Shown one piece after another: positions 2,915-63,462 of a stretch of 64,000 bases of DNA. The notes under the pieces were generated by a model. That model made no database searches. It was not told where the DNA came from and saw nothing but the letters and a program-made list of their open reading frames with translations. The position numbers and the translations under genes are program-made. The DNA is from an uncultured Clostridia bacterium. Lineage in GTDB: Bacteria; UBA6262; WVXT01. Within the stretch, counting starts at the first letter, position 1; every line of letters begins with the position of its first letter. The DNA lies in NCBI GenBank assembly GCA_964345635.1, contig CAYFRM010000075.1, positions 11,531 to 75,530 on the forward strand. The letters run 5' to 3'.

Positions 2915-3673
2915 ATGAACAGACTTTCAGTAATTATCATTACCTACAACGAAGAAGAAAATATTGGAGACTGTCTGGAAAACGTCAAGTGGTCTGACGA
3001 GATTGTAATTGTTGACGCTTTCAGTAGTGATAGGACTGTGGAGATAGCCCGAGAATTCACCCCCCGGGTATTCCGGAACAGATGGACCGACTTTTCTCAG
3101 CAAAAGAACTTAGCCTTGGGAAAAGCAAGCAACGACTGGGTATTAAGTATAGATGCTGACGAACGCGTTACGCCAGAATTGAAGGAAGAAATCATCAACA
3201 TCCTCAATTCCCCGTCTCCACCGTTCAATGGTTACTATATAGCGAGAAGAAGTCACTATCTGGGAAAATGGATCAAGCATTGTGGATGGTATCCCGACTA
3301 TAAGTTACGCCTGTTTCTGAGAGAAAAAGGGAAATTTAACGAAAGGATGGTGCATGAATCTGTACTGGTAGAAGGCAGGAAAGGCCGCCTTAAGTCCTGC
3401 CTGGACCATTATTCATATAAAAACTTATCCGACCATTTAAGCAAAATTGATAAGTTCACTTCCCTCTCTGCCGGGGAAATGTTTACAAAAGGTAAGAAAG
3501 GGACAACATTCGATTTGCTTTTTCGGCCGCCGGTCAAGTTTATCAATATGTACCTGATAAAGAAAGGTTTTCTGGACGGCATATATGGGTTTATTGTTTG
3601 CATTATCGGGAGCTTCTACGTGTTTATGAAATATCTGAAACTCTGGCTGCTGTCGAGGGAGAGAATCGATTGA
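2915..3673 (+). CDS. Glycosyltransferase family 2
   Basis: 252 aa; 'LSVIIITYNEEENI...VIVDAFSSDRT' GT2 N-terminal signature; DAD-like motif 'IDADE'. Confidence 0.75.
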   Translation: MNRLSVIIITYNEEENIGDCLENVKWSDEIVIVDAFSSDRTVEIAREFTPRVFRNRWTDFSQQKNLALGKASNDWVLSIDADERVTPELKEEIINILNSPSPPFNGYYIARRSHYLGKWIKHCGWYPDYKLRLFLREKGKFNERMVHESVLVEGRKGRLKSCLDHYSYKNLSDHLSKIDKFTSLSAGEMFTKGKKGTTFDLLFRPPVKFINMYLIKKGFLDGIYGFIVCIIGSFYVFMKYLKLWLLSRERID

Positions 3674-4651: not shown

Positions 4652-4745
4652 AAAAAAGGGGACAGGTACTTTTTTTCCTTTCACCGTGCGGCGCCCAAAA
4701 CTGACGATCCTCTTTTTTAGAAAAAGTAGCCTGTCCCCTTTTTTG
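4652..4745 (+). repeat. Repeat family C, inverted pair C1 (A6-GGGGACAGGTAC-T7 .. 45 nt .. A5-GTAGCCTGTCCCC-T6); potential bidirectional terminator
   Basis: Two reverse-complementary 24-nt motifs; if paired gives 13-bp GC-rich stem followed by U-run. Confidence 0.75.
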
Positions 4746-6932: not shown

Positions 6933-7008
6933 GTTTTACCCCGTTAGAAATGGATGTTACAAATTCTCCTGAGGGAATTTCTAACGGGGTTTATGCCCGT
7001 AATGTTTT
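6931..7008 (+). repeat. Repeat family B, copy B1 (hairpin element, loop orientation '+')
   Basis: CCCCGTTAGAAAT-[25-nt loop GGATGTTACAAATTCTCCTGAGGGA]-ATTTCTAACGGGG perfect 13-bp stem, flanks ..TTTACC / GTTTATGCCCGTAAT. Confidence 0.85.
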
Positions 7009-7944: not shown

Positions 7945-8093
7945 AATGTAGCTTGAGAGCGATAGCTCTGCATTGTAGGGGCGACACTCCGTGGTCGCCC
8001 AAAGGAAGGGACGGCACAGAGTCCGTCCCCTACAGACAGGCAAAGCTTACGCTTTGCTGCTACAAAATTGGTTGGCAGTGTAGGGCTTTACGT
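7945..8093 (+). repeat. Repeat family A, copy A2, fused to a family-B flank fragment (8069-8093)
   Basis: Same modules as A1 in permuted order; ends with GTGTAGGGCTTTACGTCCGTAATGG (family B host motif without hairpin). Confidence 0.8.
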
Positions 8094-8124
8094 CCGTAAT
8101 GGCTTTAAGCAGGGGAGAAGAAAG

Positions 8125-14344: not shown

Positions 14345-14428
14345 GTAGTGTAGGGCTTTACCCCGTTAGAAATTCCCTCAGCAGAATTTGTAACAGCCAT
14401 TTCTAACGAGGTTTATGCCCGTAATATT
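14345..14428 (+). repeat. Repeat family B, copy B2 (same flanks as B1, loop reverse-complemented)
   Basis: GTAGTGTAGGGCTTTA-CCCCGTTAGAAAT-[TCCCTCAGCAGAATTTGTAACAGCC]-ATTTCTAACGAGG-TTTATGCCCGTAAT. Confidence 0.85.
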
Positions 14429-14977
14429 TTGAGGTGCGGCAAAATGGAGAAGAAAATCAAGTCAAAAGCCCGGAATATAAAAATGTTAGGAATGGACGTA
14501 GATGGCGTACTAACACCGGGCGATATTGTGATCATGGAGTCGGGAGAGGAGATAAAGAGCTGGAACGTCAAAGACCGCATGGGATTCAATCTTGCCCGGC
14601 GATCGGGAAATTTGAAGTTTGCCTGGATTTCCGGAAGAGGGTGCAAGCAGGTTGAAAAAACGGCAGAAGACCTAAAGATAGAAGCCGTCCGTCTTAAGAG
14701 AATGGATAAGAATGAAGCCCTGCAGGAGATTTTGCAAGAATTTGCACTTAAAAGGGAAAACTTCGCTTATATTGGCGATGACCTTGTGGATATCCCCGTG
14801 CTAAAGAGGGCGGGACTCTCTTTCTGTCCCAAAGATGCGCCGCCAGAAGTAAAGGAAGTAGTGGATTACGTGACCAAAACGGAAGGTGGCCGGGGCGTCT
14901 TGCGGGAAGTGGTGGAACTGATACTGAAATTGCAGGGGAAATGGGAAGAAACTACCAGAGAGTACTGTAACAAATGA
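14429..14977 (+). CDS. kdsC: 3-deoxy-D-manno-octulosonate 8-phosphate phosphatase (HAD family)
   Basis: 182 aa; 'MLGMDVDGVLT' HAD motif I, 'IGDDLVDIPV' motif; alternative start ATG at 14444 possible. Confidence 0.8.
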   Translation: MRCGKMEKKIKSKARNIKMLGMDVDGVLTPGDIVIMESGEEIKSWNVKDRMGFNLARRSGNLKFAWISGRGCKQVEKTAEDLKIEAVRLKRMDKNEALQEILQEFALKRENFAYIGDDLVDIPVLKRAGLSFCPKDAPPEVKEVVDYVTKTEGGRGVLREVVELILKLQGKWEETTREYCNK

Positions 14978-15531
14978 AAAATAAAATTTTGCAGAACAGG
15001 AGTTTTCTATGGCTATTTGCTTTTCTCATTATTCTTGGTTTATCGAGTTGTGGAAAAGAAGAACCGCAAAAAACAAAGATAACCGGAGAAAAATCTTTCC
15101 CTGACCAGGCTATACAAGACTTTACCCTCACTCATACGAATCAGGGAGAAAAGGAGTGGGAGCTGGAGGCAGAGAGAGCAGAAGTTTATGATAAAGAAGG
15201 GAAGACAATTGTACACAAACTTAAACTCAAATTTTATGAGCAGGGAAAGGTTGCTTCCGTTCTGACTGCCAGGCGAGGAGAAATCAGTTCTCCCTCAGGG
15301 GACATCGAGGTGAAGGGAGACGTAGTAGTCACTTCTCAAAAAGAGAAAATGACGTTAAACACAAATAGCCTGAAATGGGATGCCCGGCGAAACAGAATAT
15401 TTACCGATGATTTCGTTCGCCAGGAAAAAGTTGACACAATAGTCACCGGGCAAGGATTGGAATCAGATCCGGAATTGGAAAGGCTGGTAATAAAAAAGGA
15501 CGTAAAAGTAATTCATAAATCGGAAAAATAA
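14974..15531 (+). CDS. lptC: LptC-like LPS export protein (N-terminal anchor/lipobox-like, beta-jellyroll region)
   Basis: 185 aa; position kdsC-lptC-lptA-lptB identical to E. coli yrbI-yrbK-lptA-lptB synteny; hydrophobic N-terminus with LSSCG. Confidence 0.55.
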   Translation: MKNKILQNRSFLWLFAFLIILGLSSCGKEEPQKTKITGEKSFPDQAIQDFTLTHTNQGEKEWELEAERAEVYDKEGKTIVHKLKLKFYEQGKVASVLTARRGEISSPSGDIEVKGDVVVTSQKEKMTLNTNSLKWDARRNRIFTDDFVRQEKVDTIVTGQGLESDPELERLVIKKDVKVIHKSEK

Positions 15532-15532
15532 C

Positions 15533-16192
15533 ATGAAGAAAAGTATTGCACTTTTTTTGCCGTTCGTTTTTGTAAGCGTAGTTCTAGCGGAGAACCCGAA
15601 ACAAACAGTGAACATCGCCGGAGAGAGGATGGAAGTATTGAAAAAAGGGGAAATCACCCGTTTTCTGGGGAATGTAAGATTGGTCAGGCACACAGATACA
15701 ATAACTTCCGATATAATGGAACGTTATGAGAAAAAAAACTACGTGGTAGGAAAAGGAAACGTGCATCTTACGGCCTATCCGAAAAAATCCTTAAGGATGG
15801 AAGCTTTTTCTGACCGATTAACTTATAACGTAGACGGCAAGAAAAGTGTTCTTACCGGCAATCCAAGGCTTATCCGAATCGATGAAGATAATCCCGAAGA
15901 CAGAATAAAAATGGAAGGACAGGTAATAAAGCTGTCGGGTAATGAGAAAAAAATAAATGTGCAGGGCGATACCAGGGTAGAACACGGAAGAATAACTGCT
16001 ACAGGCAAACTTCTCGACTACGATTATGAAATAAAGAAAATTGTTCTTACCGGAGATTCTCCCCGTATTTACCAGGATGACGAACAGGTAAAGGCTGACT
16101 ACGCGGCAGAAACCATTACCATATTCATCGATGAAGAGAGAGTCATTATGGAGGGGAATGTAAAAGCATCTATTTATCCCAAGAAACGGTAG
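15533..16192 (+). CDS. lptA: LPS transport periplasmic protein LptA (OstA-like N-terminal domain)
   Basis: 219 aa; signal peptide, repeated OstA-like beta-strand pattern, synteny before lptB. Confidence 0.7.
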   Translation: MKKSIALFLPFVFVSVVLAENPKQTVNIAGERMEVLKKGEITRFLGNVRLVRHTDTITSDIMERYEKKNYVVGKGNVHLTAYPKKSLRMEAFSDRLTYNVDGKKSVLTGNPRLIRIDEDNPEDRIKMEGQVIKLSGNEKKINVQGDTRVEHGRITATGKLLDYDYEIKKIVLTGDSPRIYQDDEQVKADYAAETITIFIDEERVIMEGNVKASIYPKKR

Positions 16193-16196
16193 TGTG

Positions 16197-16281
16197 ACCC
16201 TTTACGGGCATAAATCTCGTTAGAAATGGATGTTACAAATTCTCCTGAGGGAATTTCTAACGGGGTAAAGCCCTGTACCAC
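16197..16281 (+). repeat. Repeat family B, copy B3 (whole element inverted relative to B2)
   Basis: CCCTTTACGGGCATAAA-TCTCGTTAGAAAT-[GGATGTTACAAATTCTCCTGAGGGA]-ATTTCTAACGGGG-TAAAGCCCTGTACC. Confidence 0.85.
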
Positions 16282-26145: not shown

Positions 26146-26212
26146 TTTCTCCAATGTAGGGGTTTGATTTATCGAACCCGACTGCAGCGAGCAGTAAGGA
26201 ATTAATGCCGAG

Positions 26213-31474: not shown

Positions 31475-33185
31475 AGAAAAAATTTCCGAGTTGATCGAAC
31501 AGGGAAAAGAGACGGGAAAACTAACCTATCAGGAGATAAACGAGCAACTTCCCGAAAGTATAGTCGATTCTGACGAAATAGACGATATTCTCAGTAAACT
31601 TGACGAGCTGGGAATCGATGTCGTAGATAAAATTGCCCTGATTGAAAGGCCGGAGAAAGCAGAGGAGGAAAAGGGAGGTTTAGTCCCCATAACTCCCGCT
31701 ACCGAAATAGAGACGAGCGATTCCATAAAGATGTACCTGAACGAGATGGGCAAGGTTTCTCTGCTCAGTCGCGCTCAGGAGATGCATTTAGCCAAGAGCA
31801 TAAAGGACAATGAAAAAAAGCTGAAACAAGTAGCGTTAGAATCACCTATAGCTTTAAGGGAGATAAAGCTAATGGGTAAGATGTTAGAGAAACGCGAAAT
31901 TACTCCCAAGGAGTTGATGCCGCGGGGTCGAAAGACCGGCGCGGCTTTGGCCAGAATGAGGCAGAAGATGAAAAGGGTCGTTCGGGAAATCACCAAAGGC
32001 GAGAGAAAAATCCTGGCCTACGAGAAGAGATTGAAAGCGAAGAGAATTACTCCTAAGTCAAGAGAGAAAGTGGAGAAATTATTGTCCCAGGAAAAGAAGA
32101 AAATTCTGCAGCAAATTCTGGATTTGAACTTGAAAGCAGATAAGATTAAGAAAATAATTATAAAAATCAAACACACGGGTCTAAGATTGAGACAGATAGA
32201 AAAAGAAAGCGCTTACTATCAACGAAAGCTTAAACTTTCCTTTCCTGAGGCTAGGAAACTATGGCGCAGAGCCAGGGCGAGGAAAATGTCCCGGGTGGAA
32301 TTCAAGAAGAAAACGGGAGTAACCATAAAAGAGATCAAGGGAATACACAAGAATTTGAGGAACGTGTCTCAGCGTCTCCTGCAGCTGCAGCGAGCGGTGG
32401 GAATGGACTTCTTGGCGATAAAGGAGCTGCACAAGCAGGTTATGCAACTGGAGTCAGAAATTCTCGACGGTAAACTGAAACTGGTTAAGGCAAACTTGAG
32501 GCTGGTGGTCAGTATTGCCAAGAAACATATCAATCCCAACCTTTCTTTGTTAGATTTGATTCAGGAGGGCAGTATCGGGCTGATGAAAGCGGTTGACAAA
32601 TTCGAATATAAGAGGGGGTTTAAGTTTTCCACGTATGCAACCTGGTGGATCAGGCAGTCTATAAATCGGGCAATAGCCGACCAGGCCCGCACTATTAGAA
32701 TTCCTGTACATATGAAAGAGATTATTAGCAAATTGACCAAAATTGCCCGGCGCTATCGTCAGAAATACGGGCGCGATCCTCTAATTGAAGAATATGCCAA
32801 GGAAATGAAGATGGCGCCGGAAAGAATACGCGCCGTGCTGAAGATAATGCAAGAGCCGATATCCCTGGCTACTCCCATCGGCGAGGAAGAAGAAAGCCAC
32901 CTGGAAGATTTCATCGAAGACCGCGATAACCTGTCCCCGGTGAATATTGCCCTGGATGTTCTACGCCAGAAGGAGATAGAGAAAGTATTGTCTACTTTGA
33001 CCGAACGGGAGGCAAAGATTATCAAATTGAGATTTGGTATCGGAGTGGGATATCCCCGCACTTTAGAAGAGGTAGGCCATATATTTAATGTAACCAGAGA
33101 AAGAGTGAGACAGATCGAGGCAAAAGCGATAAGAAAACTGCGACATCCTTCACGTAGCAAGTATTTGAGAGAATACGTTGAATAA
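31461..33185 (+). CDS. rpoD: RNA polymerase sigma factor RpoD (sigma-70)
   Basis: 574 aa; region 2.4 '[11 protein letters not shown]', region 4.2 '[16 protein letters not shown]'; dnaG-rpoD synteny. Confidence 0.9.
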
Positions 33186-33208
33186 AAAAAGGGGACAGGC
33201 TACTTTTT
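33184..33208 (+). repeat. Repeat family C, solo copy C2 (A7-GGGGACAGGCTAC-T5) immediately after rpoD stop
   Basis: Exact reverse complement of C1b/C5b core. Confidence 0.7.
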
Positions 33209-33254
33209 GACCCAGCAGAGCGAAGCTGTGGCGTGCCATGTGCCAATATATATA

Positions 33255-35457: not shown

Positions 35458-35460
35458 ACA

Positions 35461-35485
35461 AAAAAGGGGACAGGTACTTTTTTGC
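35461..35485 (+). repeat. Repeat family C, solo copy C3 after nrdJ stop
   Basis: AAAAAAGGGGACAGGTACTTTTTTG. Confidence 0.7.
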
Positions 35486-35530
35486 ATTTTTGACGATCCC
35501 GGAGAGTCCAAGTAAAATTCCAGGCACAAT

Positions 35531-35771: not shown

Positions 35772-37508
35772 ATGTTTGGATGGAACGGGAAGATAGCAAA
35801 TGTTTACTTGACCGAAAAGAGAACAGAAATCGTTTCCCTGGGCGAAAAATTCCTCAGCAACTACCTGGGAGGGCGTGGTCTAGGAGTAAAATTCGTCTAC
35901 GATTTGGTGAAGCCTGATATCGACCCGCTCTCTTCGGAAAATATCCTCGTGTTTGCTGCCGGACCCCTCACTGGCACCACTTGCCCTACTTCCGGACGAT
36001 ATGCCGCTGTTTCCAAATCTCCCCTAACCGGCTCCATATTCGATTCTAACAGTGGCGGGAGCTTTGGCCCGGAGTTAAAGTTCGCCGGAATTGACGGGTT
36101 AGTAATATATGGAAGGGCAGAACAACCTGTATACATAGAGATTCATAATGACAAAATCTCCATAAAAGATGCAAAACATCTCTGGGGCAGAAATACGCGG
36201 GAAGTCACCCGGGAATTATCGAAATTGGGAAGAGTTGCCTGTATAGGGAAAGCGGGAGAGAAAGGAGTAAGGTTTGCCAACATAATGAACGACTATGCCC
36301 ATACTTGCGGTCGTGGCGGATTGGGAGCTGTGATGGGCAGCAAGAATCTAAAAGCAATCGTGGTGAAAGGAGACGGGAAAGTATCCATCTCCGACAGGGA
36401 AAGATATAAGAAGTATTTTCAAGATATAACCAGGCTTCTCGTAGCCAGCCCGGTGTCTTCGAAAGGTCTTAGCGAGTACGGAACGGCAGTTCTTGTTAAC
36501 CTGACAAATTATATGAGGATTCTTCCTACGGGTAATTTCAGGTTTTCCCGGTTCGATTTTGCTGAGGAGATTTCCGGCGAGAAGATAAATTCGGTTTTTT
36601 CCGTGAAAAAGACGCCTTGTTATGCTTGTCCCATAGCCTGCAAGCGTGAAGTCAAAGACACGGAAATGGAAGTACCGGAATACGAAACCATAAGTATGTT
36701 CGGTTCTTCCTGCAGGATTTCCGACATTCGAACTATAATGAAGGCAAATAGACTATGCAATGAGTACGGTATGGATACCATTACTGCAGGCAGCACTATC
36801 GCCTGCCATTCGGAACTGAACGGAGAAGAGCTAACAGACAAGAAATTATTGGAGTTAGTTGAATCAATCGGTGAAAAGAAGGGTATCGGTGAAGAATTGT
36901 CCCAGGGTTCAATGAGATTTGCCAGAGCCAATAAGCAACCCGATAAAAGCATGCAAGTAAAAGGGCTGGAGTTACCCGGTTATGACCCCAGAGGAGTTCT
37001 GGGATTGGCTTTGGGATATGCCACTTCCAATAGAGGGGGATGCCACCTGAGAGCGTATATGATTGGTCCCGAAATTTTTGGCAAGCCGAAACTGGTAAAC
37101 AGGCTTACTTTCTCCGGAAAGTCCGGTCTTGTACAGGTCATCCAGAATCTGTTCACCGCAGTCGATTCTCTGGTAGTCTGTAAATTTGCCCTGTTCAGCG
37201 CGGGAGAAGAAGAGTGGGCAAATATTCTAAGTGCGGTAACGGGAATAGAATTTGTCTCGGAAAGTCTGCTGGAGATAGGAGAAAGAATCTGGAATATAGA
37301 AAGATTGTTCAATCTGAAAGAGAAATTCGGTAATAAGGACGACACTCTTCCGGAAAGATTTTTTCAAGAAGACGGAGGAGTGGAGGGCAGAAATATTAAG
37401 AAAGGAGAGTTTCTGGCATCTCTTCTGGAATACTATCGATTCCGGGGATGGAATAGAAAAGGCATACCCACTAAAGAGAAGCTGACACAACTTAATATTC
37501 AAGTGTAG
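35772..37508 (+). CDS. Aldehyde:ferredoxin oxidoreductase (tungstopterin AOR family)
   Basis: Start at 'MFGWNGKIANVYL' 1 nt after MoaD-like stop; AOR N-terminal and 'CYACPIAC' 4Fe-4S ligand region. Confidence 0.85.
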   Translation: MFGWNGKIANVYLTEKRTEIVSLGEKFLSNYLGGRGLGVKFVYDLVKPDIDPLSSENILVFAAGPLTGTTCPTSGRYAAVSKSPLTGSIFDSNSGGSFGPELKFAGIDGLVIYGRAEQPVYIEIHNDKISIKDAKHLWGRNTREVTRELSKLGRVACIGKAGEKGVRFANIMNDYAHTCGRGGLGAVMGSKNLKAIVVKGDGKVSISDRERYKKYFQDITRLLVASPVSSKGLSEYGTAVLVNLTNYMRILPTGNFRFSRFDFAEEISGEKINSVFSVKKTPCYACPIACKREVKDTEMEVPEYETISMFGSSCRISDIRTIMKANRLCNEYGMDTITAGSTIACHSELNGEELTDKKLLELVESIGEKKGIGEELSQGSMRFARANKQPDKSMQVKGLELPGYDPRGVLGLALGYATSNRGGCHLRAYMIGPEIFGKPKLVNRLTFSGKSGLVQVIQNLFTAVDSLVVCKFALFSAGEEEWANILSAVTGIEFVSESLLEIGERIWNIERLFNLKEKFGNKDDTLPERFFQEDGGVEGRNIKKGEFLASLLEYYRFRGWNRKGIPTKEKLTQLNIQV

Positions 37509-37596
37509 GGGCTCGATTGATTGCACCCTTATTACGGGATTCCTTCCCCAAGGGGGGTAAGTATCGGGTGACAATAATTCTTCTAAAGGAGTCACA

Positions 37597-38597: not shown

Positions 38598-38626
38598 AAG
38601 ACTACTCAAAAAAAAAGAACGCAAGT

Positions 38627-38700
38627 GGGCCCATAGCTCAGCTGGTTAGAGCACCTGACTCATAATCAGGGAGTCCTAGGTTCGAATCCTAGTGGGCCCA
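38627..38700 (+). tRNA. tRNA with CAT anticodon (elongator Met or Ile2/lysidine type; 1:72 base-paired so not initiator)
   Basis: Cloverleaf: acceptor GGGCCCA/TGGGCCC, D-arm GCTCAGCTGGTTAGAGC, anticodon loop CTCATAA, T-arm GGTTCGAATCC; CCA not encoded. Confidence 0.8.
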
Positions 38701-38736
38701 TTGTTTGTTTTGAGCCCCATAAAAAAGGAGATTATT

Positions 38737-42304: not shown

Positions 42305-42334
42305 TTGATTCTTGGTTGAAAAATCTACTATAAT
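42305..42334 (+). promoter_or_regulatory. Candidate promoter TTGATT-18-TATAAT
   Basis: Immediately downstream of terminator, upstream of membrane-protein gene. Confidence 0.4.
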
Positions 42335-42362
42335 TACACCATCCTTGCGGGAGTCAGTTACT

Positions 42363-43568
42363 ATGCACGACCTGATAATTTTAATTGCTGCTCTGGGAAT
42401 TATTCTGATTCTTTTCAAATGGAGACTGAATCTCACTCTGACTATGATAGTAGCGGCACTCTTTCTGGGTATCGCGTACAGGTTTAATTCGACAGAGATT
42501 TCGAAAACTTTTTATTCTGCTTGCGTCTCCAGGGAGACCCTGGAGATTGCCGCCACACTCTTTTTCGTGATCATATTCAACCTTTGTATGACCGCGGCCT
42601 ATACTTTCAAGAAAATAATTAGCAATATGAAAAATATACTGTCGGACATAAGGTGGATTATCGCCGTTGTTCCCGCGGTAATCGGTTTTCTTCCCATGTT
42701 TGGTGGTGCTCTCGTTTCCGCTCCCGTGGTAAAAAAAGTCACCCAGGAAATGGGCATATCAAACGAGCGAAAAACCTTTCTCAATTTTTGGTTTAGACAT
42801 ATCTGGGAGTATACCCTGCCGCTCTACCCGGGAATCCTGGTGGCTGCGGGTATTCTGGGCGTGCCCGTCTACAGGATAATCGCCAGCAATAGCATCCTGA
42901 CTGTGAGTGCAATTGTTATAGGGATAATTTGGGGTACCGGGAGATTGAAACGGAGAACCGAACATTCTCCGGAAGTTTTTTCCGGAAAAGGTCAGGCAAT
43001 TCTCAATTTTCTCTTCAACCTATCGCCAATTATCCTGGTGATGGTTCTGGTTCTCGTTTTCAGGTTAAAAGTTTTATACGCTCTCATTGCGGCAATAATG
43101 TTCACGATCATCGCCAATAAGATTCCCCTTAGAAAAATTTTGCGCACTGTGAAAGAAGAGAAGTACGGGATGATTCTTATGGTCTTTGCCATTATGATTT
43201 TCAAGGGAATGTTGACAGCCACAGGGATAATAGAGCGCCTGCCTCTTTTCTTTAAGAGTGCGGGCATTCCCCGGTACCTGGTTATTTCTTTTCTTCCTTT
43301 CATTGCGGGTTTTTTAACGGGAATGACCATGGCCGCAGTGGGCATCACTTTCCCGGTTATTCTGCCCCTTTTTGATGGTAAGTTATCACTTATGACTTTT
43401 TCCTTTATGTGTGGATTTGCCGGGGTCTTGTTGACACCCGTCCACTTTTGCCTGGCGTTAACCAGAGAATATTTCCGGGCTGACTGGCTGAAACTTTATC
43501 GCAAAGAATTGATTCTTCCGGTATTCCTGATGATAGTAATCGGACTTATTTATACTGTGATAGTGTAG
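42363..43568 (+). CDS. Polytopic integral membrane protein (DUF401-like, putative transporter)
   Basis: About 400 aa, 10 or more hydrophobic segments; start chosen at 'MHDLIIL' after terminator/promoter. Confidence 0.45.
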   Translation: MHDLIILIAALGIILILFKWRLNLTLTMIVAALFLGIAYRFNSTEISKTFYSACVSRETLEIAATLFFVIIFNLCMTAAYTFKKIISNMKNILSDIRWIIAVVPAVIGFLPMFGGALVSAPVVKKVTQEMGISNERKTFLNFWFRHIWEYTLPLYPGILVAAGILGVPVYRIIASNSILTVSAIVIGIIWGTGRLKRRTEHSPEVFSGKGQAILNFLFNLSPIILVMVLVLVFRLKVLYALIAAIMFTIIANKIPLRKILRTVKEEKYGMILMVFAIMIFKGMLTATGIIERLPLFFKSAGIPRYLVISFLPFIAGFLTGMTMAAVGITFPVILPLFDGKLSLMTFSFMCGFAGVLLTPVHFCLALTREYFRADWLKLYRKELILPVFLMIVIGLIYTVIV

Positions 43569-43630
43569 GTGTAGGGGCGGCACTCCGTGGCCGCCCAGGG
43601 AAGGGACGGCACAGAGTCCGCCCCCTGCAG
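43564..43630 (+). repeat. Repeat family A, compact copy A3
   Basis: GTAGGGGCGGCACTCCGTGGCCGCCC..GGGACGGCACAGAGTCCGCCCCCTGCAG; two internal 7-bp-stem hairpins inside an outer GTAG/CTAC-type closing stem. Confidence 0.8.
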
Positions 43631-43649
43631 AAATGAAAAGGAGACAATA

Positions 43650-47015: not shown

Positions 47016-49133
47016 ATGGAATTCCAACTCAAAATAGTGCTGGAAAAACTTTTTTATCCCAAATCAATAGCAGTTATCGGCGCCTCCCGCGAAGAAGGAA
47101 AAGTTGGCCACAGCATTTTGAAAAATCTCCTCCGCTACGGTTACCCGGGAAAGATTTATCCCATCAATCCCAAAACAGACGAAATTTTGAGAACAAGAGC
47201 ATATTCCACAATCTTTGCCGTGGAAGGGCAGATAGACCTCGCTGTAGTGGCTATTCCTGCCAAATCAGTTCCTTCCATACTTGAAGATTGCGCAAAGAAA
47301 GAAATAGGTGCGGTGATTATTATTTCGGCTGGCTTCAAAGAATCCGGCAAACAGGGTTCCCAGCTGGAAAGAGACCTGGTGGAAATTATCAAAAATTCAA
47401 GTATGAGGGTACTCGGACCGAATTGTCTGGGAATCATCGATACTGCCTCAAGCCTTAACGCCTCTTTTGCCGCGGGTATGCCTTCCCGAGGAAACATTGC
47501 CTTCTTTTCTCAATCCGGTGCTCTATGTACCGCCGTGTTGGATTGGGCACTTGAGGAAGATGTGGGATTCTCAAAATTCATTAGTCTGGGAAATAAGGCA
47601 GACATAGATGAAGTGGACCTGTTGCTTGCCCTGGCTGAGGATTCGGAAACCAGGGTTATCCTCGGCTATCTGGAAGGAATAGAGGATGGCGTCAGATTTA
47701 TGGAAGTAGCCAGAGAGGTCTCACGAAAAAAACCTGTCATTATCACCAAATCTGCACGCACGCAAGCCGGCGCAAAAGCCGCCTCTTCGCATACGGGAAC
47801 GCTGGCAGGCCTGGACACGGCCTACGAAGCGGCTTTCAGACAGAGCGGAATAATCAGAGCCGAGACCGTGCAAACTCTTTTCGATTACGCTATTGCCTTT
47901 GCCCAGCAACCCATTCCCCGGGGACCAAATCTTGCTATTCTGACCAATGCCGGCGGTCCGGCAATTATCGCCGCGGATGCAGTGGAGAACTCCCTTCTCC
48001 AGATGGCTTCTTTCAGGGAGGATACGGTTAGTAAACTGCGAAAGGAGCTCCCCTCTAATGCTTCCGTATATAATCCGGTTGACGTGATTGGCGACGCGGG
48101 AGCGGATCGTTATGAGAAGGCAATGAAAATTATCGTTGCTGACCCGGGAGTCGATAGCCTTACGGTAATTTTGGCGCCCCAGGCAATGACTGATATAAAA
48201 GAAACGGCGGAAGTCATAAACAATATCTCTTCCACAGTCTCCGACAAACCTATCGTCGCTTCATTTATGGGACAGCTAGAAGTTAAGGAGGGTAGAAAGA
48301 TTTTGCGCGCGGGGAAGATACCCAATTATCCTTACCCGGAGCGCACTATTTCTGCTCTGGAGGCTATGGTTAAGTACGAGAAGTTGAAAAAGAGACGTCC
48401 TGGCAAGATTCACCTTTTGGAAGTGAATAAGAAAAAGGCAGAAGAAATTCTGGCAAAAGCGAAAGCGAAAAGCAAAGCTAATCTGTCTGCTGAGGAAACC
48501 AGAGAAGTGCTTTCAGCTTATGGTTTTTCTCTTCCCCGGAGAATCGTTGCCGAAACTTCGCGGGAAGCAATTTCTGCGGCAAACTCTCTGGGTTATCCCG
48601 TGGTAATGAAGATTGTTTCTCCCGATATTTTGCACAAATCCGACGTGGGGGGAGTTAAAATGGGAGTGACCAACAGGTCTCAGGTTGCCAGTAGCTTTGA
48701 AGATCTCGTTTCCCATGCAAAAAGATTTATGCCGGAAGCATTAATCCTGGGAGTAAGCGTGGAGGAGATGGTGGAACAGGGGAAAGAGGTAATACTGGGC
48801 TCCTCCCGAGATCCTTCTTTCGGGCCCCTTCTTATGTTCGGGCTGGGCGGAATCTATATAGAAATTCTCAAAGATATATCTTTCAGGATTGCACCGTTAA
48901 CTTTAGATGAGGCAGAGTCAATGATAAAGGAAGTCCGCTCCTACCCCATCCTTAAGGGAGTGCGCGGAGAAAAACCTTCCGACTTACTCGCAGTCAGAGA
49001 TGGTCTGTTAAGATTGTCTCAACTGGTTACGGAGTTCCCGGAAATTTTGGAGATTGATATAAATCCATTAATGGTCTTACCGGTGGGTAAAGGAGCTGTA
49101 GCCATAGATTCACGATTGGCAATAAAAATATGA
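47016..49133 (+). CDS. Acetyl-CoA synthetase (ADP-forming), fused alpha/beta NDP-forming acyl-CoA synthetase
   Basis: 705 aa; CoA-binding 'IAVIGASREEGKVGH', phospho-His loop 'SSHTGTLAG', C-terminal ATP-grasp. Confidence 0.85.
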   Translation: MEFQLKIVLEKLFYPKSIAVIGASREEGKVGHSILKNLLRYGYPGKIYPINPKTDEILRTRAYSTIFAVEGQIDLAVVAIPAKSVPSILEDCAKKEIGAVIIISAGFKESGKQGSQLERDLVEIIKNSSMRVLGPNCLGIIDTASSLNASFAAGMPSRGNIAFFSQSGALCTAVLDWALEEDVGFSKFISLGNKADIDEVDLLLALAEDSETRVILGYLEGIEDGVRFMEVAREVSRKKPVIITKSARTQAGAKAASSHTGTLAGLDTAYEAAFRQSGIIRAETVQTLFDYAIAFAQQPIPRGPNLAILTNAGGPAIIAADAVENSLLQMASFREDTVSKLRKELPSNASVYNPVDVIGDAGADRYEKAMKIIVADPGVDSLTVILAPQAMTDIKETAEVINNISSTVSDKPIVASFMGQLEVKEGRKILRAGKIPNYPYPERTISALEAMVKYEKLKKRRPGKIHLLEVNKKKAEEILAKAKAKSKANLSAEETREVLSAYGFSLPRRIVAETSREAISAANSLGYPVVMKIVSPDILHKSDVGGVKMGVTNRSQVASSFEDLVSHAKRFMPEALILGVSVEEMVEQGKEVILGSSRDPSFGPLLMFGLGGIYIEILKDISFRIAPLTLDEAESMIKEVRSYPILKGVRGEKPSDLLAVRDGLLRLSQLVTEFPEILEIDINPLMVLPVGKGAVAIDSRLAIKI

Positions 49134-49141
49134 TCTAAATT

Positions 49142-49245
49142 TGTAGTGTAGGGGCGGCGCTCCGTGGCCGCCCAGAGTAAGGGACGGCACAGAGTCCGTC
49201 CCCTACACATAGACAAAATTGACACACTTTGCTGTTACATTCTTG
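49142..49245 (+). repeat. Repeat family A, compact copy A4 plus degenerate CTTTGCTG(T/C)TACA module
   Basis: TGTAGTGTAGGGGCGGCGCTCCGTGGCCGCCC..GGGACGGCACAGAGTCCGTCCCCTACA; downstream CACTTTGCTGTTACAT resembles A1/A2 tail. Confidence 0.8.
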
Positions 49246-49264
49246 AACGGAGGAGGATAAAAAA

Positions 49265-50335
49265 ATGGTCTCTCTATATGTGGGTTCTACCTGCGAATAT
49301 TCGGGAAAGACGCTGGTTTGTATAGGTTTGGGAAAAAGGTTTCAAAACGATGGTATATCTATTGCCTATTTTAAACCTCTGGGAAAACTTCCTGTGAGAG
49401 TAGGAAAGCTACTGGTTGACGAGGACGGAGTTTCCATGCAGGAAATTTTGGGACTGCAGGACCCGCTCGATTTAGTCTGTCCCGTCGTTCTGACCCAGGA
49501 CCTCACTATCCAGGCCTATACGAAAAAAATAAAAAGTTTAGAAAACAAAGTAATTGAAGCTTATGATAAGATTTCCCGGGGCAGGGATCTGGTTTTGATA
49601 GGAGGAGGAAGTAATTTTGACGAAGGTTCTTTTTTGGGTATCCCCGCGAGAAGACTAATCAGAGAAATGAAGGCCAGAGCCATATTAATTGATAAATGCG
49701 AAACGGATATTTTAGTAGATCCTATTCTCGCTGCCAGGGAGTTTCTGGGAGAGAGTCTCATAGGTGTAGTTCTGAATCGCATCGCTCTGGACAAGATCGA
49801 ATATTTCAAAAGGAGAATAGTGCCTTTTTTGAAAAGAGAGGGAATAGAAGTTTTAGGAATGATTCCTCAGGACACTTTGTTAAATGCTATCAGCATTGGC
49901 GAACTCTCTGACAGCCTGGGAGGAGAAATTCTTTGTTGTGATGATAAGGTAGACGAGCTGGTGGAACATTTCATGATCGGGGCGATGAATGTGGAAGGGG
50001 CTTTAAGATATTTCCGAAAAGTTCAAAACAAAGCGGTCATTACCGGAGGCGACCGCGCCGACGTCCAGCTCGCCGCCCTGGAAACCTCAACCAGATGCAT
50101 TATTTTGACCGGCAACCTTTTCCCCAGCCATATTATAATTTCCCGGGCAGAAGAACGGCAAGTGCCGATAGTACTGGTTAAAGAAGACACACTGACGACG
50201 GTAGAAAAAATAGAAAGTCTACTCAGACGCTTGAGAGTCAGTGGCAAGAAGAAAGTGGCCCGAGCCGTAGAACTGGTAAATCGAGAGGTAAACTTTCGGT
50301 CCTTGTATGATAAGTTAGGTATCAGGGTAAGATAA
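49265..50335 (+). CDS. Standalone phosphotransacetylase N-terminal-like regulatory protein (AAA_26 + DRTGG domains), no PTA catalytic domain
   Basis: 356 aa; N-terminus 'VGSTCEYSGKTLVCIGLG..FKPLG' like Pta N-term; 'VITGGDRAD' DRTGG motif. Confidence 0.6.
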   Translation: MVSLYVGSTCEYSGKTLVCIGLGKRFQNDGISIAYFKPLGKLPVRVGKLLVDEDGVSMQEILGLQDPLDLVCPVVLTQDLTIQAYTKKIKSLENKVIEAYDKISRGRDLVLIGGGSNFDEGSFLGIPARRLIREMKARAILIDKCETDILVDPILAAREFLGESLIGVVLNRIALDKIEYFKRRIVPFLKREGIEVLGMIPQDTLLNAISIGELSDSLGGEILCCDDKVDELVEHFMIGAMNVEGALRYFRKVQNKAVITGGDRADVQLAALETSTRCIILTGNLFPSHIIISRAEERQVPIVLVKEDTLTTVEKIESLLRRLRVSGKKKVARAVELVNREVNFRSLYDKLGIRVR

Positions 50336-50395
50336 AACGCCAATGCAGAGCGACAGTTCCGCGTTATGATGTAGCTGCAGAGCGAAGCTCTGCTT

Positions 50396-50465
50396 CGATG
50401 TAGGTAGTGTAGGGCTTTATGCCCGTCCCCATTAATCGGGACGCCCATAAAGGGCTACACTACTC
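50396..50465 (+). repeat. Family B host-motif copy without hairpin insert (B4), flanked by GCAGAGCGAAGCTCTGC hairpin
   Basis: GTAGGTAGTGTAGGGCTTTATGCCCGTCCCC..GGGACGCCCATAAAGGGCTACACTAC imperfect long inverted repeat; upstream 50369-50385 GCAGAGC-gaa-GCTCTGC. Confidence 0.7.
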
Positions 50466-50491
50466 GCAAGTTTTGGAAGAGAGCCTGTGTA

Positions 50492-51181
50492 ATGATTCCG
50501 CTTAAAGACACCGTACCGTCGGAAAGGTATCCCATTGCCACCGTATTTTTAATCGTGGCGAACATTTCCGTATTCTTTTATGAGATTAGCCTGGGCGGAA
50601 AATTGCCGGAACTGGTCAAATTTGCCGGTGTGGTACCGGCGCGCTTTTTTGATTCTCAATTGTATACGTATCAAGGACTCCTCCGGCGTTACTTTCCCAT
50701 ATTTACTTCTCTTTTCCTGCACGGAGGATGGTTTCACGTTCTGGGCAATATGTTGTATCTCTGGATTTTTGCCGACAATATCGAAGACAGGCTGGGACAC
50801 TTTAAGTTTCTGGTTTTCTATTTTCTCTGCGGATTGGGAGCAGGCCTGGCTCATATCTTTGCCAATCCTACTTCCTCCGTGCCTTCGATTGGTGCCAGCG
50901 GCGCTATTGCCGGGATTTTGGGTGCATACTTTATTCTCTATCCTAAATCCCGGGTAATTACTCTGGTGCCAATCTTTTTCTTTTTTCAGATCATTGAGCT
51001 TCCAGCGTTTATATTTTTGGGAATCTGGTTCTTTATGCAGTTTTTCAACGGGGTGTTAACCCTGGGTCCCGGGACTGCCCAGGCAGGGGGAATTGCCTGG
51101 TGGGCACATATCGGGGGATTTTTAAGCGGAATATTTTTTATTCTTCTTTTGAAAGGAAAAAAATATCAGAGAAGAGGGTGA
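50492..51181 (+). CDS. Rhomboid-family intramembrane serine protease
   Basis: 229 aa; 'GASGAIAGILG' GxSG and downstream 'AHIGGF' His helix. Confidence 0.8.
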   Translation: MIPLKDTVPSERYPIATVFLIVANISVFFYEISLGGKLPELVKFAGVVPARFFDSQLYTYQGLLRRYFPIFTSLFLHGGWFHVLGNMLYLWIFADNIEDRLGHFKFLVFYFLCGLGAGLAHIFANPTSSVPSIGASGAIAGILGAYFILYPKSRVITLVPIFFFFQIIELPAFIFLGIWFFMQFFNGVLTLGPGTAQAGGIAWWAHIGGFLSGIFFILLLKGKKYQRRG

Positions 51182-51195
51182 ATAGAACTTTTCGT

Positions 51196-52461
51196 ATGTA
51201 TAAAAAATATGTACTGGATAACGGTTTGAAGGTCATAATAGCCCCCATGAAAGGAACACGAGCGGTCACTGTTTTGATTTTGGTGGGAACAGGATCTCGC
51301 TACGAATCCGAACAATTGAACGGCATCACTCATTTTTTGGAGCATATGTTGTTCAGGGGAACGAACAAGCGACCAAGCGCCAAAGTCATTTCCGAAAGTA
51401 TTGATAGAGTAGGAGGAGAGCTGAACGCTTATACCAGCGAAGAGAGCACCGGCTTTTTTGTTCACTTAGCAAGTACTCATTTGGAGCTCGCCCTGGATGT
51501 TCTTTCGGATATGCTGCTTAATTCAAAATTTGAAAAAGAGGAGATCGAAAAGGAGAAAGGGGTAATCCTGGAAGAGATTAATATGCATCAGGATAAACCC
51601 GATGTGCAGGTTGCAAATATCTACAAATCCTTGCTTTACGGCAACCAACCTCTGGGATGGGAAGTAATCGGGAAAAAAGAGGTAATCAAAAATATGGACC
51701 GGGGAAAATTATTGGCTTATCGAGAAGAAAATTTTTCCCCCAATAATACAGTAATCTCCATTGCCGGCGATGTCCAGCCCGGAAAGACTTGTGCATTGAT
51801 TAAAGAGTATTTGGGTAGATGGGAAAATAGAAAAAGGCCTTCCTGTCTGTTCCTGCAGGAAAAACAGACAGTTCCTGCTATTGCCCTGCAACATAGAAAG
51901 ACCGACCAGTCCTATATATGCCTGGGGGTAAGGACTTTTGCTTACGAACATCCCGATTATTATGTTCTGAGAATTTTGAATACCATTCTGGGAGGGATGG
52001 TAAGTTCCCGCCTTTTTGTGCGACTTCGGGAAGAAGAAGGGATAGCTTATTCAGTCGATTCTTTGAGAGAATCTTATCGGGATGGAGGGAACTTGCGTGT
52101 TAATGCAGGAGTGGAAATAAAAAAGACAAAAGCTGCCATCGGGGCCGTTTTAGAAGAATTTAGGAGACTGTGTCAAGAAATTCTTGGCGAGGAAGAATTA
52201 AGAAAAGGTAAGGAATACCTGAAAGGCAGATTAGCCCTGGAACTGGAGCTTTCTTCCGGAGTAGCCGGGTTTCTGGGTCATCAGGAACTCCTTCTGGAAA
52301 AAATCAAATTGCCGGAAGAACAGATAAGAGAAATCGAAAAAGTTTCTGCACGAGACATAAATAGAGTGGCCAAAACAATTTTTGTCGACAAACACCTCAA
52401 TCTGGCAGTGGTTGGTCCCTTTACGGATAAAAATATATTTGTAAAATTATTAAAATTTTAA
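51196..52461 (+). CDS. M16-family zinc peptidase (pitrilysin-like)
   Basis: Start 'MYKKYVLDNGLKVI'; inverted zinc motif 'HFLEHMLFRG' (HxxEH). Confidence 0.8.
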   Translation: MYKKYVLDNGLKVIIAPMKGTRAVTVLILVGTGSRYESEQLNGITHFLEHMLFRGTNKRPSAKVISESIDRVGGELNAYTSEESTGFFVHLASTHLELALDVLSDMLLNSKFEKEEIEKEKGVILEEINMHQDKPDVQVANIYKSLLYGNQPLGWEVIGKKEVIKNMDRGKLLAYREENFSPNNTVISIAGDVQPGKTCALIKEYLGRWENRKRPSCLFLQEKQTVPAIALQHRKTDQSYICLGVRTFAYEHPDYYVLRILNTILGGMVSSRLFVRLREEEGIAYSVDSLRESYRDGGNLRVNAGVEIKKTKAAIGAVLEEFRRLCQEILGEEELRKGKEYLKGRLALELELSSGVAGFLGHQELLLEKIKLPEEQIREIEKVSARDINRVAKTIFVDKHLNLAVVGPFTDKNIFVKLLKF

Positions 52462-53145: not shown

Positions 53146-53217
53146 GGGCAATTAGCTCAGCGGGAGAGCGCTGCTTTCACAAGGCAGAGGTCGCTGGTTC
53201 AACCCCAGCATTGCCCA
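53146..53217 (+). tRNA. tRNA-Val (CAC)
   Basis: Acceptor GGGCAAT/ATTGCCC, D-arm GCTCAGCGGGAGAGC, anticodon stem-loop CTGCT-TTCACAA-GGCAG, T-arm GCTGGTTCAACCCCAGC. Confidence 0.8.
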
Positions 53218-55564: not shown

Positions 55565-55860
55565 GGCTTGAAGTGAACCGGATGGTTGCTCCGATGTTTA
55601 TCGGAGAGGAAAGTCCGAACTCCACAGGGCGGAGTGTTCCGTGTAAACGGAAGGGGAGTAATCCTACGGAAAGTGGCACAGAAACCAGGTACAGGTAATG
55701 CTGTAGTGAAAAGGCTAAACCCCACTCGGAGCAAGACCGAATAGCAGAGAAGAGACGGCCCGTCTCGTTACTACTCTACGGGTTGGTCGCTCAGATAAAT
55801 AACCATCGTTCCGATTTATAGTCGGAATACAGGATTCGGCTTACAGGTTCATTTCAAGCC
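55565..55860 (+). ncRNA. rnpB: RNase P RNA (bacterial type A), compact (about 296 nt)
   Basis: P1 pairing GGCTTGAAGTGAACC/GGTTCATTTCAAGCC; P4 'GAGGAAAGTCCGAACTCCACAGGGC'; 'GTGAAAAGGCTAAACCCCAC', 'AATAG', 3' 'ACAGGATTCGGCTTACAG' match universally conserved regions; followed by T-run. Confidence 0.8.
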
Positions 55861-60377: not shown

Positions 60378-61059
60378 GGGAAATGATTTCATAGATTTAG
60401 ACACTCTTTTCGATTTTACCGATAACAGTAAAGCCGAAATCTATCTACCGAAGATATACTGCTCCACGATTAAAAGTATCGTAGCCAATGCTTTAACCAT
60501 AAAATTGGACCTTATCATTTTTGATAACGGCTATAGCAAGTGTGACAATGGCAGATTTGTTAGTGAAATTCTCAAGCGTGAGCTTGATGTGCCTATAATT
60601 ACCACTCAAAATAACGCTACTCGCAGGCACCCTCAACCGATATGCGAAAGTGGTCTGGCACTGAGAAAGAAATTTGACTTGATAGTGGACAGTGTCGTCA
60701 AGGACGTTGATAAGTCAAAATTGAAACGCGCCGAGCCGGATTATGGCTTCTGGGGAGTTCCTCCCAATGATTTCAGCATACTTGATCTGTTTCCTGAGAA
60801 AACCCACGTTTTCGGGTGGGCAAGGTGTATGGAGGCAAAAGTTCCCGCGGACCTGGAATTGGAAATGTTGGTAAGGGAGGACCTGCCCACGGTATTCTAC
60901 GCCCAGGCTTTCTGCAGCAAGAACTCCTTAGCCAGGTATCTGGCAAAGAAACATAACGGACTCTATGTTGAGGTTGATGACGTTCTTGATAATTCCGTAA
61001 AACGCAAAATCGAAGCTTACCTCTTACTAAACAGGAAAAAGGGACAGGTACTTTTTTGA
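60325..61059 (+). CDS. Hypothetical protein (possibly partner/DUF2229-like component of the downstream ATPase)
   Basis: 244 aa; GGGGAG RBS; overlaps yhhQ end by 53 nt; C-terminus encodes repeat-C motif. Confidence 0.4.
   Translation: MKIGIVGVPPQEILDKYKGNDFIDLDTLFDFTDNSKAEIYLPKIYCSTIKSIVANALTIKLDLIIFDNGYSKCDNGRFVSEILKRELDVPIITTQNNATRRHPQPICESGLALRKKFDLIVDSVVKDVDKSKLKRAEPDYGFWGVPPNDFSILDLFPEKTHVFGWARCMEAKVPADLELEMLVREDLPTVFYAQAFCSKNSLARYLAKKHNGLYVEVDDVLDNSVKRKIEAYLLLNRKKGQVLF
61036..61057 (+). repeat. Repeat family C, solo copy C4 forming the last 7 codons and stop of CDS 60325-61059
   Basis: AAAAAGGGACAGGTACTTTTTTGA encodes ..KKGQVLF*. Confidence 0.65.
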
Positions 61060-61073
61060 CGGAGTGAGGCGAT

Positions 61074-63409: not shown

Positions 63410-63462
63410 CAGGTACAATTTTTAGAAATAGAAATGTAAAAAAGTAGCCTGTCCCCTTTTTT
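63400..63462 (+). repeat. Repeat family C, inverted pair C5 (AAAAAGTGACAGGTAC..12 nt..GTAGCCTGTCCCC-T6) overlapping sppA stop; potential terminator
   Basis: Same architecture as C1 with shorter spacer. Confidence 0.7.

Follow-up and report, generated by a model that had tools for sequence, protein, structure and literature searches.

Repetitive extragenic palindromes (REPs) of the GTAG superfamily and their head-to-head (HH) dimers, including the Stenotrophomonas SMAGs, have been described in a broad survey (Di Nocera et al., 2013; PMC3733652). The text of that survey places GTAG repeats in Proteobacteria, Cyanobacteria, Chloroflexi and the Planctomycetes-Verrucomicrobia-Chlamydiae (PVC) group, never mentions Firmicutes or Clostridia, and mentions Acidobacteria only for transposases flanked by long terminal inverted repeats. 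IS200/IS605 elements are known to act strand-specifically on the lagging-strand template (background cited in PMC3333891). In this study, we analyzed a 64-kb stretch of DNA from an uncultured Clostridia bacterium (contig CAYFRM010000075.1, positions 11,531 to 75,530; the whole stretch is called the window) and a short repeated unit in it, A3, at 43571-43628. This unit is very likely a head-to-head dimer of GTAG-tagged REPs, a non-autonomous mobile element resembling bacterial interspersed mosaic elements (BIMEs) and REP doublets forming hairpins (REPINs). Judged from its sequence, it lacks what defines a REPIN, one long hairpin conserved between its halves. The kind of element is known, a REP doublet serviced by a REP-associated tyrosine transposase (RAYT), while the lineage, an uncultured marine-sediment bacterium, and the sequence class are undescribed for it.

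The repeated unit is about 58 nt long, and the span of 43564-43630 given in an earlier note on this DNA takes in 7 nt of flank. In full, A3 reads GTAG-GGGCGGC-ACTCCGTG-GCCGCCC, AGGGAA, GGGACGG-CACAGAGT-CCGCCCC-CTGC, and its parts are as follows:

43571 to 43596, + strand: left unit of A3 (L-type REP), GTAG and GGGCGGC, loop ACTCCGTG, GCCGCCC; 44 bits, E 5e-14
43597 to 43602: spacer AGGGAA of 6 nt (the family mode is 7 nt)
43603 to 43628, - strand: right unit of A3 (R-type REP, decayed), GCAG GGGGCGG ACTCTGTG CCGTCCC; 25.5 bits against about 41 for intact units

Both hairpins of the doublet are one 26-nt module placed in opposite orientations (head-to-head). The module has GTAG as its 5' tag, followed by a GC-rich stem of 7 bp around a conserved loop of 8 nt. 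The L type, on the + strand, is GTAG GGGCGRC ACTCCGTG GYCGCCC, and the R type, on the - strand, is GTAG GGGACGG ACTCTGTG CCGTCCC. In the right unit of A3, the GTAG head has become GCAG and one stem pair is G.T on the - strand and A.C on the + strand. The single sequence that the earlier note quoted for A3 and for another copy, A4, is correct for A4 apart from one loop base and incorrect for A3, whose right half is CCGCCCC-CTGC and not CCGTCCC-CTAC. The same note enclosed the two hairpins in a GTAGGGG/CCCCTAC outer stem, which counts GGG/CCC twice. Because these bases are already used by the hairpin stems, at most 4 bp can close a junction; only GTAG/CTAC coexists with both hairpins, and the "outer stem" is the two invariant GTAG heads facing outward. 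A3 is flanked on one side by the stop codon of the open reading frame (ORF) at 42312-43568 and on the other by the next + strand gene, which starts with the ATG at 43650. It starts 2 nt past the stop codon and ends 21 nt before the start codon, 11 nt before the GGAG ribosome-binding site of the next gene at 43640.

Eight family-A 26-nt units are present at four loci of the window, all intergenic and flanked by + strand genes, and none is expected by chance. Scanning the window with a covariance model of the 26-nt half-unit yields exactly eight strong matches, four on each strand, with scores of 41-44 bits for seven units and 25.5 bits for the right half of A3. The pattern GTAGGGG-N16-CCC has seven matches in the window against 0.05 expected from shuffles, and the pattern with the loop and one mismatch has eight against 0.00. 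Every intact unit carries the GTAG tag. Thus, the compact repeated unit proposed earlier is real, and both of its hairpins with 7-bp stems and 8-nt loops exist. The difference between GCGAC/GTCGC in A1 and A2 and GCGGC/GCCGC in A3 and A4, to which the earlier note had also drawn attention, is a true compensatory pair. Family-A doublets are bracketed by a second class of GTAG-headed hairpin, REP-B (GTAGC.GCAGAGC-GATA-GCTCTGC; partner GCAAAGC-TTAC-GCTTTGC-TGCTAC). The other three loci are composed as follows:

2739 to 2895, + strand: A1, a rearranged cluster that begins with a degenerate long-loop L variant (2739-2772)
2782 to 2807, - strand: R unit of A1
2814 to 2837, - strand: REP-B' of A1
2843 to 2866, + strand: REP-B of A1, with the head GTGG
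2870 to 2895, + strand: L unit of A1
7948 to 8063, + strand: A2, a composite of about 116 nt in which four GTAG-headed hairpins are nested head-to-head
7948 to 7971, + strand: REP-B of A2
7975 to 8000, + strand: L unit of A2, followed by a spacer
8008 to 8033, - strand: R unit of A2
8040 to 8063, - strand: REP-B' of A2
49148 to 49206, + strand: A4 doublet
49148 to 49173, + strand: L-type unit of A4, followed by the spacer AGAGTAA
49181 to 49206, - strand: R-type unit of A4
50372 to 50394: a further REP-B site, outside these loci

A2, A3 and A4 are inverted REP pairs with a short linker and the GTAG tags outermost. The inner doublet of A2 spans 7975-8033, and A3 and A4 correspond to this compact inner pair of the composite. 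The left loop of A4 is GCTCCGTG, and a degenerate outer hairpin follows the A4 doublet to about 49239. In A1, the GTAG tags of the family-A units at 2782-2807 and 2870-2895 point inward.

Pairing was evaluated on 56 distinct doublets, which come from about 120 unrelated contigs among the matches listed and whose left stems and heads were unconstrained by the search. When the two hairpins and the GTAG/CTAC helix are scored together, 97.9% of the cells are paired. Five pairs of the two-hairpin model are changed on both sides, with 46 compensated cells, and none of 500 shuffles matches the model in cells paired, compensated cells or covariation score, while 9 of 500 match it in the number of pairs changed on both sides. 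One pair is C-G in 37 doublets and U-A in 16, and another is G-C in 34 and A-U in 21; in slid controls, pairing drops to 39-56%. The structure-preserving substitutions for which the earlier note suggested a check are therefore found in both hairpins, and the patterns of substitution support the view that both are under selection for pairing. The GTAG/CTAC outer helix has no pairs with double changes among the 56 doublets, and GTAG is kept in 50 of the 56 left units, which were not selected on head or stems.

Transposase genes were searched for among the six-frame ORFs of the fetched loci, with E. coli YafM and then with the search's own hits as queries. The gene at L138/L241 matches PF01797 and, with 99.3 bits against a cut-off of 80, the NCBIfam model NF047646 for a "REP-associated tyrosine transposase". 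The only PDB match of its protein is 4ER8, E. coli TnpA-REP (E 4e-7), and the two proteins align at the HUH motif (HLH), at WQ and at the catalytic-tyrosine motif Y-I-x-x-N-P. Upstream of this gene there are three family-A REPs, one of which is the exact 26-mer of the left unit of A3 and A4, and a REP doublet lies directly past its stop codon. A 77%-identical homolog, on L243, has a single L/R doublet on its upstream side and, downstream, three in tandem, with stems and loops as in A3, and a further related contig (L244) also bears a RAYT with flanking REPs. The RAYT is found at one syntenic locus, always upstream of a GH94 gene. The RAYT contigs also carry REP-B hairpins, and they share the GC content of the window (44-47% GC contigs) and its tetranucleotide signature (r 0.82-0.92, where Pyrinomonadaceae give -0.2 to 0.1). 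JABAOH010006001.1, in the assembly GCA_012974985.1 that also contains the DNA of the window, carries an identical RAYT gene. As an alternative to an RNA, the earlier note had named a recognition structure for a transposase or nuclease; this proposal is borne out, since the same hairpins flank REP-associated tyrosine transposase genes.

The same REP class also brackets Y1_Tnp (PF01797) genes at three Pyrinomonadaceae loci, whose RAYT proteins have an insertion of about 60 aa. The 26-mer GTAGGGGCGGCACTCCGTGGCCGCCC is unchanged on the flanks of RAYTs that share only 26% identity (L024, L030 and L076 of Pyrinomonadaceae versus L138/L241). The RAYT of L175 (L175 3221-3880; 57.5 bits on NF047646, below the cut-off) is 35% identical and hence nearer, yet it is paired with a different REP. 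On L233, a RAYT (95.7 bits on NF047646) is flanked by a tandem hairpin without the GTAG tag, GTCAAAC-TTTC-GTTTGAC-ACTCC (2285-2445 and 2980-3100), and the contig also bears a family-A composite.

Relatives of the unit are widespread beyond the window. A genome scan with the pattern GTAGGGG-N4-ACTCNGTG-N4-CCC, in which the inner stem positions are free, finds matches on at least 120 contigs. Most of the matches listed belong to Pyrinomonadaceae/Blastocatellia metagenome-assembled genomes (MAGs) of 51-58% GC, and a few belong to MAGs of 42-46% GC titled "Clostridia bacterium", which have the stem variants of the window. The free stem positions are fully complementary in the great majority of the 146 matches listed, which comprise at least 13 different stem sequences. 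A metagenome scan with the R type and three free pairs finds at least 118 contigs, and those listed have a median GC of 44%. The window and dozens of contigs have the repeats in common and not the flanks, the exceptions being a few contigs of the same DNA or orthologs. Related contigs carry up to 15 units per 12 kb, and the spacers of 76 doublets in the loci are 2-11 nt long with a mode of 7. The four-hairpin composite, of which A2 is the full version in the window, recurs in dozens of unrelated contigs in the order GTAGCTGCAGAGC-GATA-GCTCTGC, L, spacer, R and GCAAAGC-TTAC-GCTTTGC-TGCTAC. On the contig Ga0315312_1000337 (L130 4378-4433), the whole 5.5-kb locus is one stop-free frame on the - strand with a family-A doublet inside it; this may reflect the insertion of a REP into a gene or an artefact of read-through.

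Short-read assemblies of the DNA of the window (L121, L122, L174, L240 and L246) seem to break at or beside the repeats. L122 begins at window position 49180, between the halves of A4, and in L121 the gene after A3 has been given a start within the repeat, some 65 nt upstream of its likely ATG (L121 870). L121 was uninformative as a strain comparison, because it is the same DNA with N-scaffolding artefacts.

Presence and absence of the doublets, and their internal linkage, bear on how they spread. L215 is a 79%-identical ortholog of window 49058-51353 and is without A4 between the same two genes; in its next spacer, it has a family-A doublet where the window has REP-B and a GTAGTGTAG-type palindrome. 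Because A4 is absent from the orthologous operon spacer, the doublet is not required there. The subtype of the left stem is linked to the length of the spacer (Fisher p 0.001), a sign that a doublet may be copied whole. Complete doublets are also found in tandem arrays, yet singletons, R-only tandem arrays and variant left hairpins with long or short loops are also common. A3 itself is probably a decaying relic that is no longer mobile, because its right half has a mutated tag and a broken stem pair.

By analogy with E. coli TnpA-REP and IS200/IS605, the hairpins would form on transiently single-stranded DNA, where the RAYT would bind the GTAG-plus-hairpin unit and cut the inverted partner, on the same strand, at its CC|TAC side, so that the doublet could be moved or copied as one unit. 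The strand with 5'-GTAG-L...R-CTAC-3' is almost always the G-rich sense strand, which would be the lagging-strand template, and this would fit strand-specific activity at the fork. A3 would also be transcribed, since it follows a stop codon by 2 nt and precedes the next start codon by 21 nt; the transcript would form stable RNA hairpins, probably as a side effect or in a secondary role.

Several points weigh against a mobile REP doublet. No transposition event or clean insertion junction was seen, and the diverged site in L215 provides presence/absence evidence and not a precise empty site. No RAYT is found in the 64-kb window below E 0.1 (phmmer and tblastn with five RAYTs and E. coli YafM), and the RAYT contigs are tied to the genome of the window only by the same assembly and similar composition. 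Exact-protein matches used to reach DNA beyond the window, where a nearby RAYT might lie, return only 1.3-8.4 kb contigs of the same DNA. The copy counts are those of the 64-kb window and not of a whole genome. The covariation set is partly chosen by pattern (the head, loop and outer stem of the right unit and the loop of the left unit were fixed), and its sequences are related copies and not independent lineages. The orientation bias described below could equally mean selection on the transcript.

A compact structured RNA, the first reading in the earlier note, would be either a small RNA (sRNA) or a cis-regulatory motif in which an outer stem and two 7-bp hairpins form a three-way junction. 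Both hairpins are real and covary, the unit is nearly always co-oriented with its flanking genes and so would be transcribed in one sense, and the fold energies have z-scores of -4 to -7, all of which speaks for a structured RNA. The junction itself is not supported. Its outer helix has 4 bp and no covariation, and for A3 as RNA it folds at -28.2 kcal/mol against -37.5 for one long hairpin (9.3 worse), so that the three-way junction makes up about 3e-7 of the ensemble as RNA and 2e-6 as DNA; across the copies, the fraction ranges from 3e-7 to at most 0.18. The reverse strand folds equally well or better, and the stem intermediates (G.T 11 versus A.C 6) have no RNA-specific wobble signature. 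In Rfam, the best score at gathering and permissive thresholds is at most 20 bits against gathering scores of at least 41, and the sub-threshold matches (miRNA precursors and Xanthomonas sX7/sX14) were dismissed as noise. A promoter-like or terminator-like site was not found around the unit, nor was a U-tract. The same hairpins occur singly, in tandem arrays, with the tags inward and flanking RAYT genes, and we consider a three-way-junction RNA very improbable. The long hairpin that outcompetes the junction would be the selected and mobilized structure if the doublet were a strict REPIN, with the halves paired into one long hairpin or cruciform. It is indeed the RNA minimum-energy fold (RNAfold) of A2, A3 and A4 on either strand, as an imperfect hairpin, and the linkage of stem type to spacer length agrees with such a structure. 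With DNA parameters, however, A2 and A4 fold at minimum energy into two separate hairpins. Pairing between the halves reaches 72.5% of cells with no covariation, values that 400-500 of 500 shuffles reach, and six inter-unit positions are unpaired in more than 90% of the 56 doublets. L and R are, in addition, consistently different subtypes, and a strict REPIN is improbable.

An RNA-level role in operons, with mobility only as the origin of the REP-derived element, is unlikely as well, though it deserves more weight than the readings above. Hairpins in intercistronic regions or 3' untranslated regions (UTRs) would block 3'-to-5' exonucleases or attenuate transcription or translation, as for some E. 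coli REPs and BIMEs, and Di Nocera et al. (PMC3733652) suggest the same for GTAG REPs. The units lie mostly 12-40 nt past stop codons between co-directional genes, with A3 only 2 nt past, and once the halves are typed as L or R, it is the L unit that lies nearer the upstream gene's 3' end, 53 times out of 58 (53:5, p 3.5e-11). However, the orientation follows GC skew equally well. The strand that reads from L to R has a positive GC skew in 71 of 79 loci (71:8), so replication-strand-specific insertion also explains the bias, and strand-specific action on the lagging-strand template, as in IS200/IS605, would fit it. All genes of the window are on the + strand and the skew is +0.10 to +0.22, so gene direction and skew are confounded; two loci are discordant between replication and transcription direction, and they are not decisive. 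The absence of a U-tract, of a sense-strand wobble excess and of the element itself from the orthologous operon spacer also speaks against a retained RNA function. Least likely of all is an ordinary MITE (a miniature transposable element bounded by terminal inverted repeats) that a DDE transposase would move, or a palindrome arisen by chance. The inverted-repeat architecture and the intergenic dispersal are those of a MITE, but the ends are GTAG tags, each belonging to a self-contained hairpin that is also found on its own, the associated gene is of the Y1/HUH type, and chance is excluded by the counts. By eye, with no systematic search, no target-site duplication was noted at the four window loci and in L215.

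Within the reading as a mobile REP doublet, the doublet might be a functionally polarized heterodimer, inserted or retained almost only one way. Its halves would do different jobs; the L unit, with its GGGYGRC stem and loop ACTCCGTG, might for instance be the REP that the RAYT binds, and the R unit, with its GGGACGG stem and loop ACTCTGTG, the inverted REP that is cleaved. If so, it would be either a clear example, from outside the Proteobacteria, of REP dynamics tied to the replication strand, or an mRNA element that depends on its orientation and has been domesticated. In addition, an identical 26-mer with 26%-identical RAYTs in two phyla-level lineages, the Clostridia-labelled sediment lineage and Pyrinomonadaceae, would point to horizontal spread of REP/RAYT or to an unusually deep conservation of the recognition code. 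We offer these two proposals, taken together, tentatively. The strong L/R polarity, with its orientation bias, is unexpected and, like the shared 26-mer, goes beyond the routine for such an element. It makes the doublet a tractable system that could help to separate replication-linked from transcription-linked constraints on REPs. With the reading as a REP doublet, an apparent "novel structured RNA" becomes a recognizable class, a REP/BIME element with a RAYT. GTAG REP/RAYT systems are abundant in uncultured Clostridia-labelled sediment bacteria and in Acidobacteriota (Pyrinomonadaceae), neither of which is among the GTAG-REP hosts in the text of the 2013 survey, and the repeats appear to coincide with assembly breaks and to mislead gene callers.

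The window contains further repeats and noncoding features. A third REP class, with a GTAGGGG head and a 6-nt AT-rich loop (GTAGGGGCTCAATTTATTGAGCCC / GTAGGGGTTCGATTTATCGAACCC), is also found at L215 1205-1228. Because this class flanks a different RAYT (L175), the lineage seems to host several REP/RAYT pairs. In a palindrome family of about 53 nt (ACCCCGTTAGAAAT...ATTTCTAACGGGGT), the 25-nt centre occurs in both orientations and the tag GTAGTGTAGGGCTTTA precedes it; two inverted 80-nt copies lie on either side of three ORFs (14429-16192). Around the stop codons of + strand genes, AAAAAAGGGGACAGG(C)TACTTTTT is a recurrent motif, also inverted, and could be part of a terminator or a further repeat. 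Essentially every long ORF of the window is on the + strand, as are the three RNA genes below, and the GC skew is strongly positive throughout.

26156 to 26179, + strand: third REP class, GTAGGGG head (GTAGGGGTTTGATTTATCGAACCC), E 0.004, the class that flanks the L175 RAYT
37505 to 37528: third REP class
6938 to 6990, 14345 to 14424, 16202 to 16281, 8080 to 8097 and 50404 to 50460: palindrome family of about 53 nt
4652 to 4681, 4721 to 4745, 33185 to 33214, 35460 to 35489, 61034 to 61063 and 63436 to 63462: motif AAAAAAGGGGACAGG(C)TACTTTTT
38626 to 38701, + strand: tRNA-Met
53146 to 53217, + strand: tRNA-Val
55570 to 55859, + strand: RNase P RNA, class A (167.7 bits)

Compared to the E. coli REP/BIME and TnpA-REP "REPtron" (Ton-Hoang et al., 2012; PMC3333891; 4ER8), the doublet shares a 5' GTAG at the foot of a short GC-rich hairpin and the inverted pairing of two subtypes (y/z in E. 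coli, L/R here) across a short linker. In both systems, the repeats are extragenic, mostly downstream of genes, and tandem arrays of pairs flank one Y1/HUH transposase gene. CC|TAC, the consensus at which cleavage occurs in E. coli, is matched in sequence at the inverted unit here. The E. coli REP has a longer imperfect stem with an essential mismatch, whereas the stem here is a perfect 7 bp with a conserved 8-nt loop. The host lineage is also another one, and the RAYT is remote, with binding and cleavage predicted here.

The element also agrees with the GTAG REPs as defined by Di Nocera et al. (PMC3733652), being made of GTAG stem-loops whose stems are within the 6-13 bp of that definition and of subfamilies that differ by complementary stem changes. 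The likeness extends to dimers with the GTAG ends outside, several REP families per genome, and sites between unidirectional or convergent ORFs. The families of that survey mostly have loops of 2-4 nt, in contrast to the conserved 8-nt loop here. The consensus sequence was not found in the searchable text of the literature, which is weak evidence of novelty since figures are not searchable.

Like the REPINs of P. fluorescens (Bertels and Rainey, 2011; Bertels et al., 2017, PMC5581495), the elements are inverted REP doublets that would propagate as a unit. The REPIN-associated RAYT is single-copy and vertically inherited, and the RAYT locus here is syntenic, upstream of GH94. REPINs are defined by the one long hairpin of the doublet, whereas pairing between the halves is interrupted and not conserved here, with a spacer of 2-11 nt. 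The subterminal hairpins of IS200/IS605 elements (IS608 and ISDra2) are recognized on single-stranded DNA by a Y1 HUH transposase, as would be the hairpins here, and both show an orientation bias that would fit activity on the lagging-strand template. Unlike those elements, the doublet has no transposase gene, is probably high-copy and is 58 nt long, and the foot of its hairpin is GTAG, where IS200/IS605 has a short guide sequence that pairs with the cleavage site (PMC3333891).

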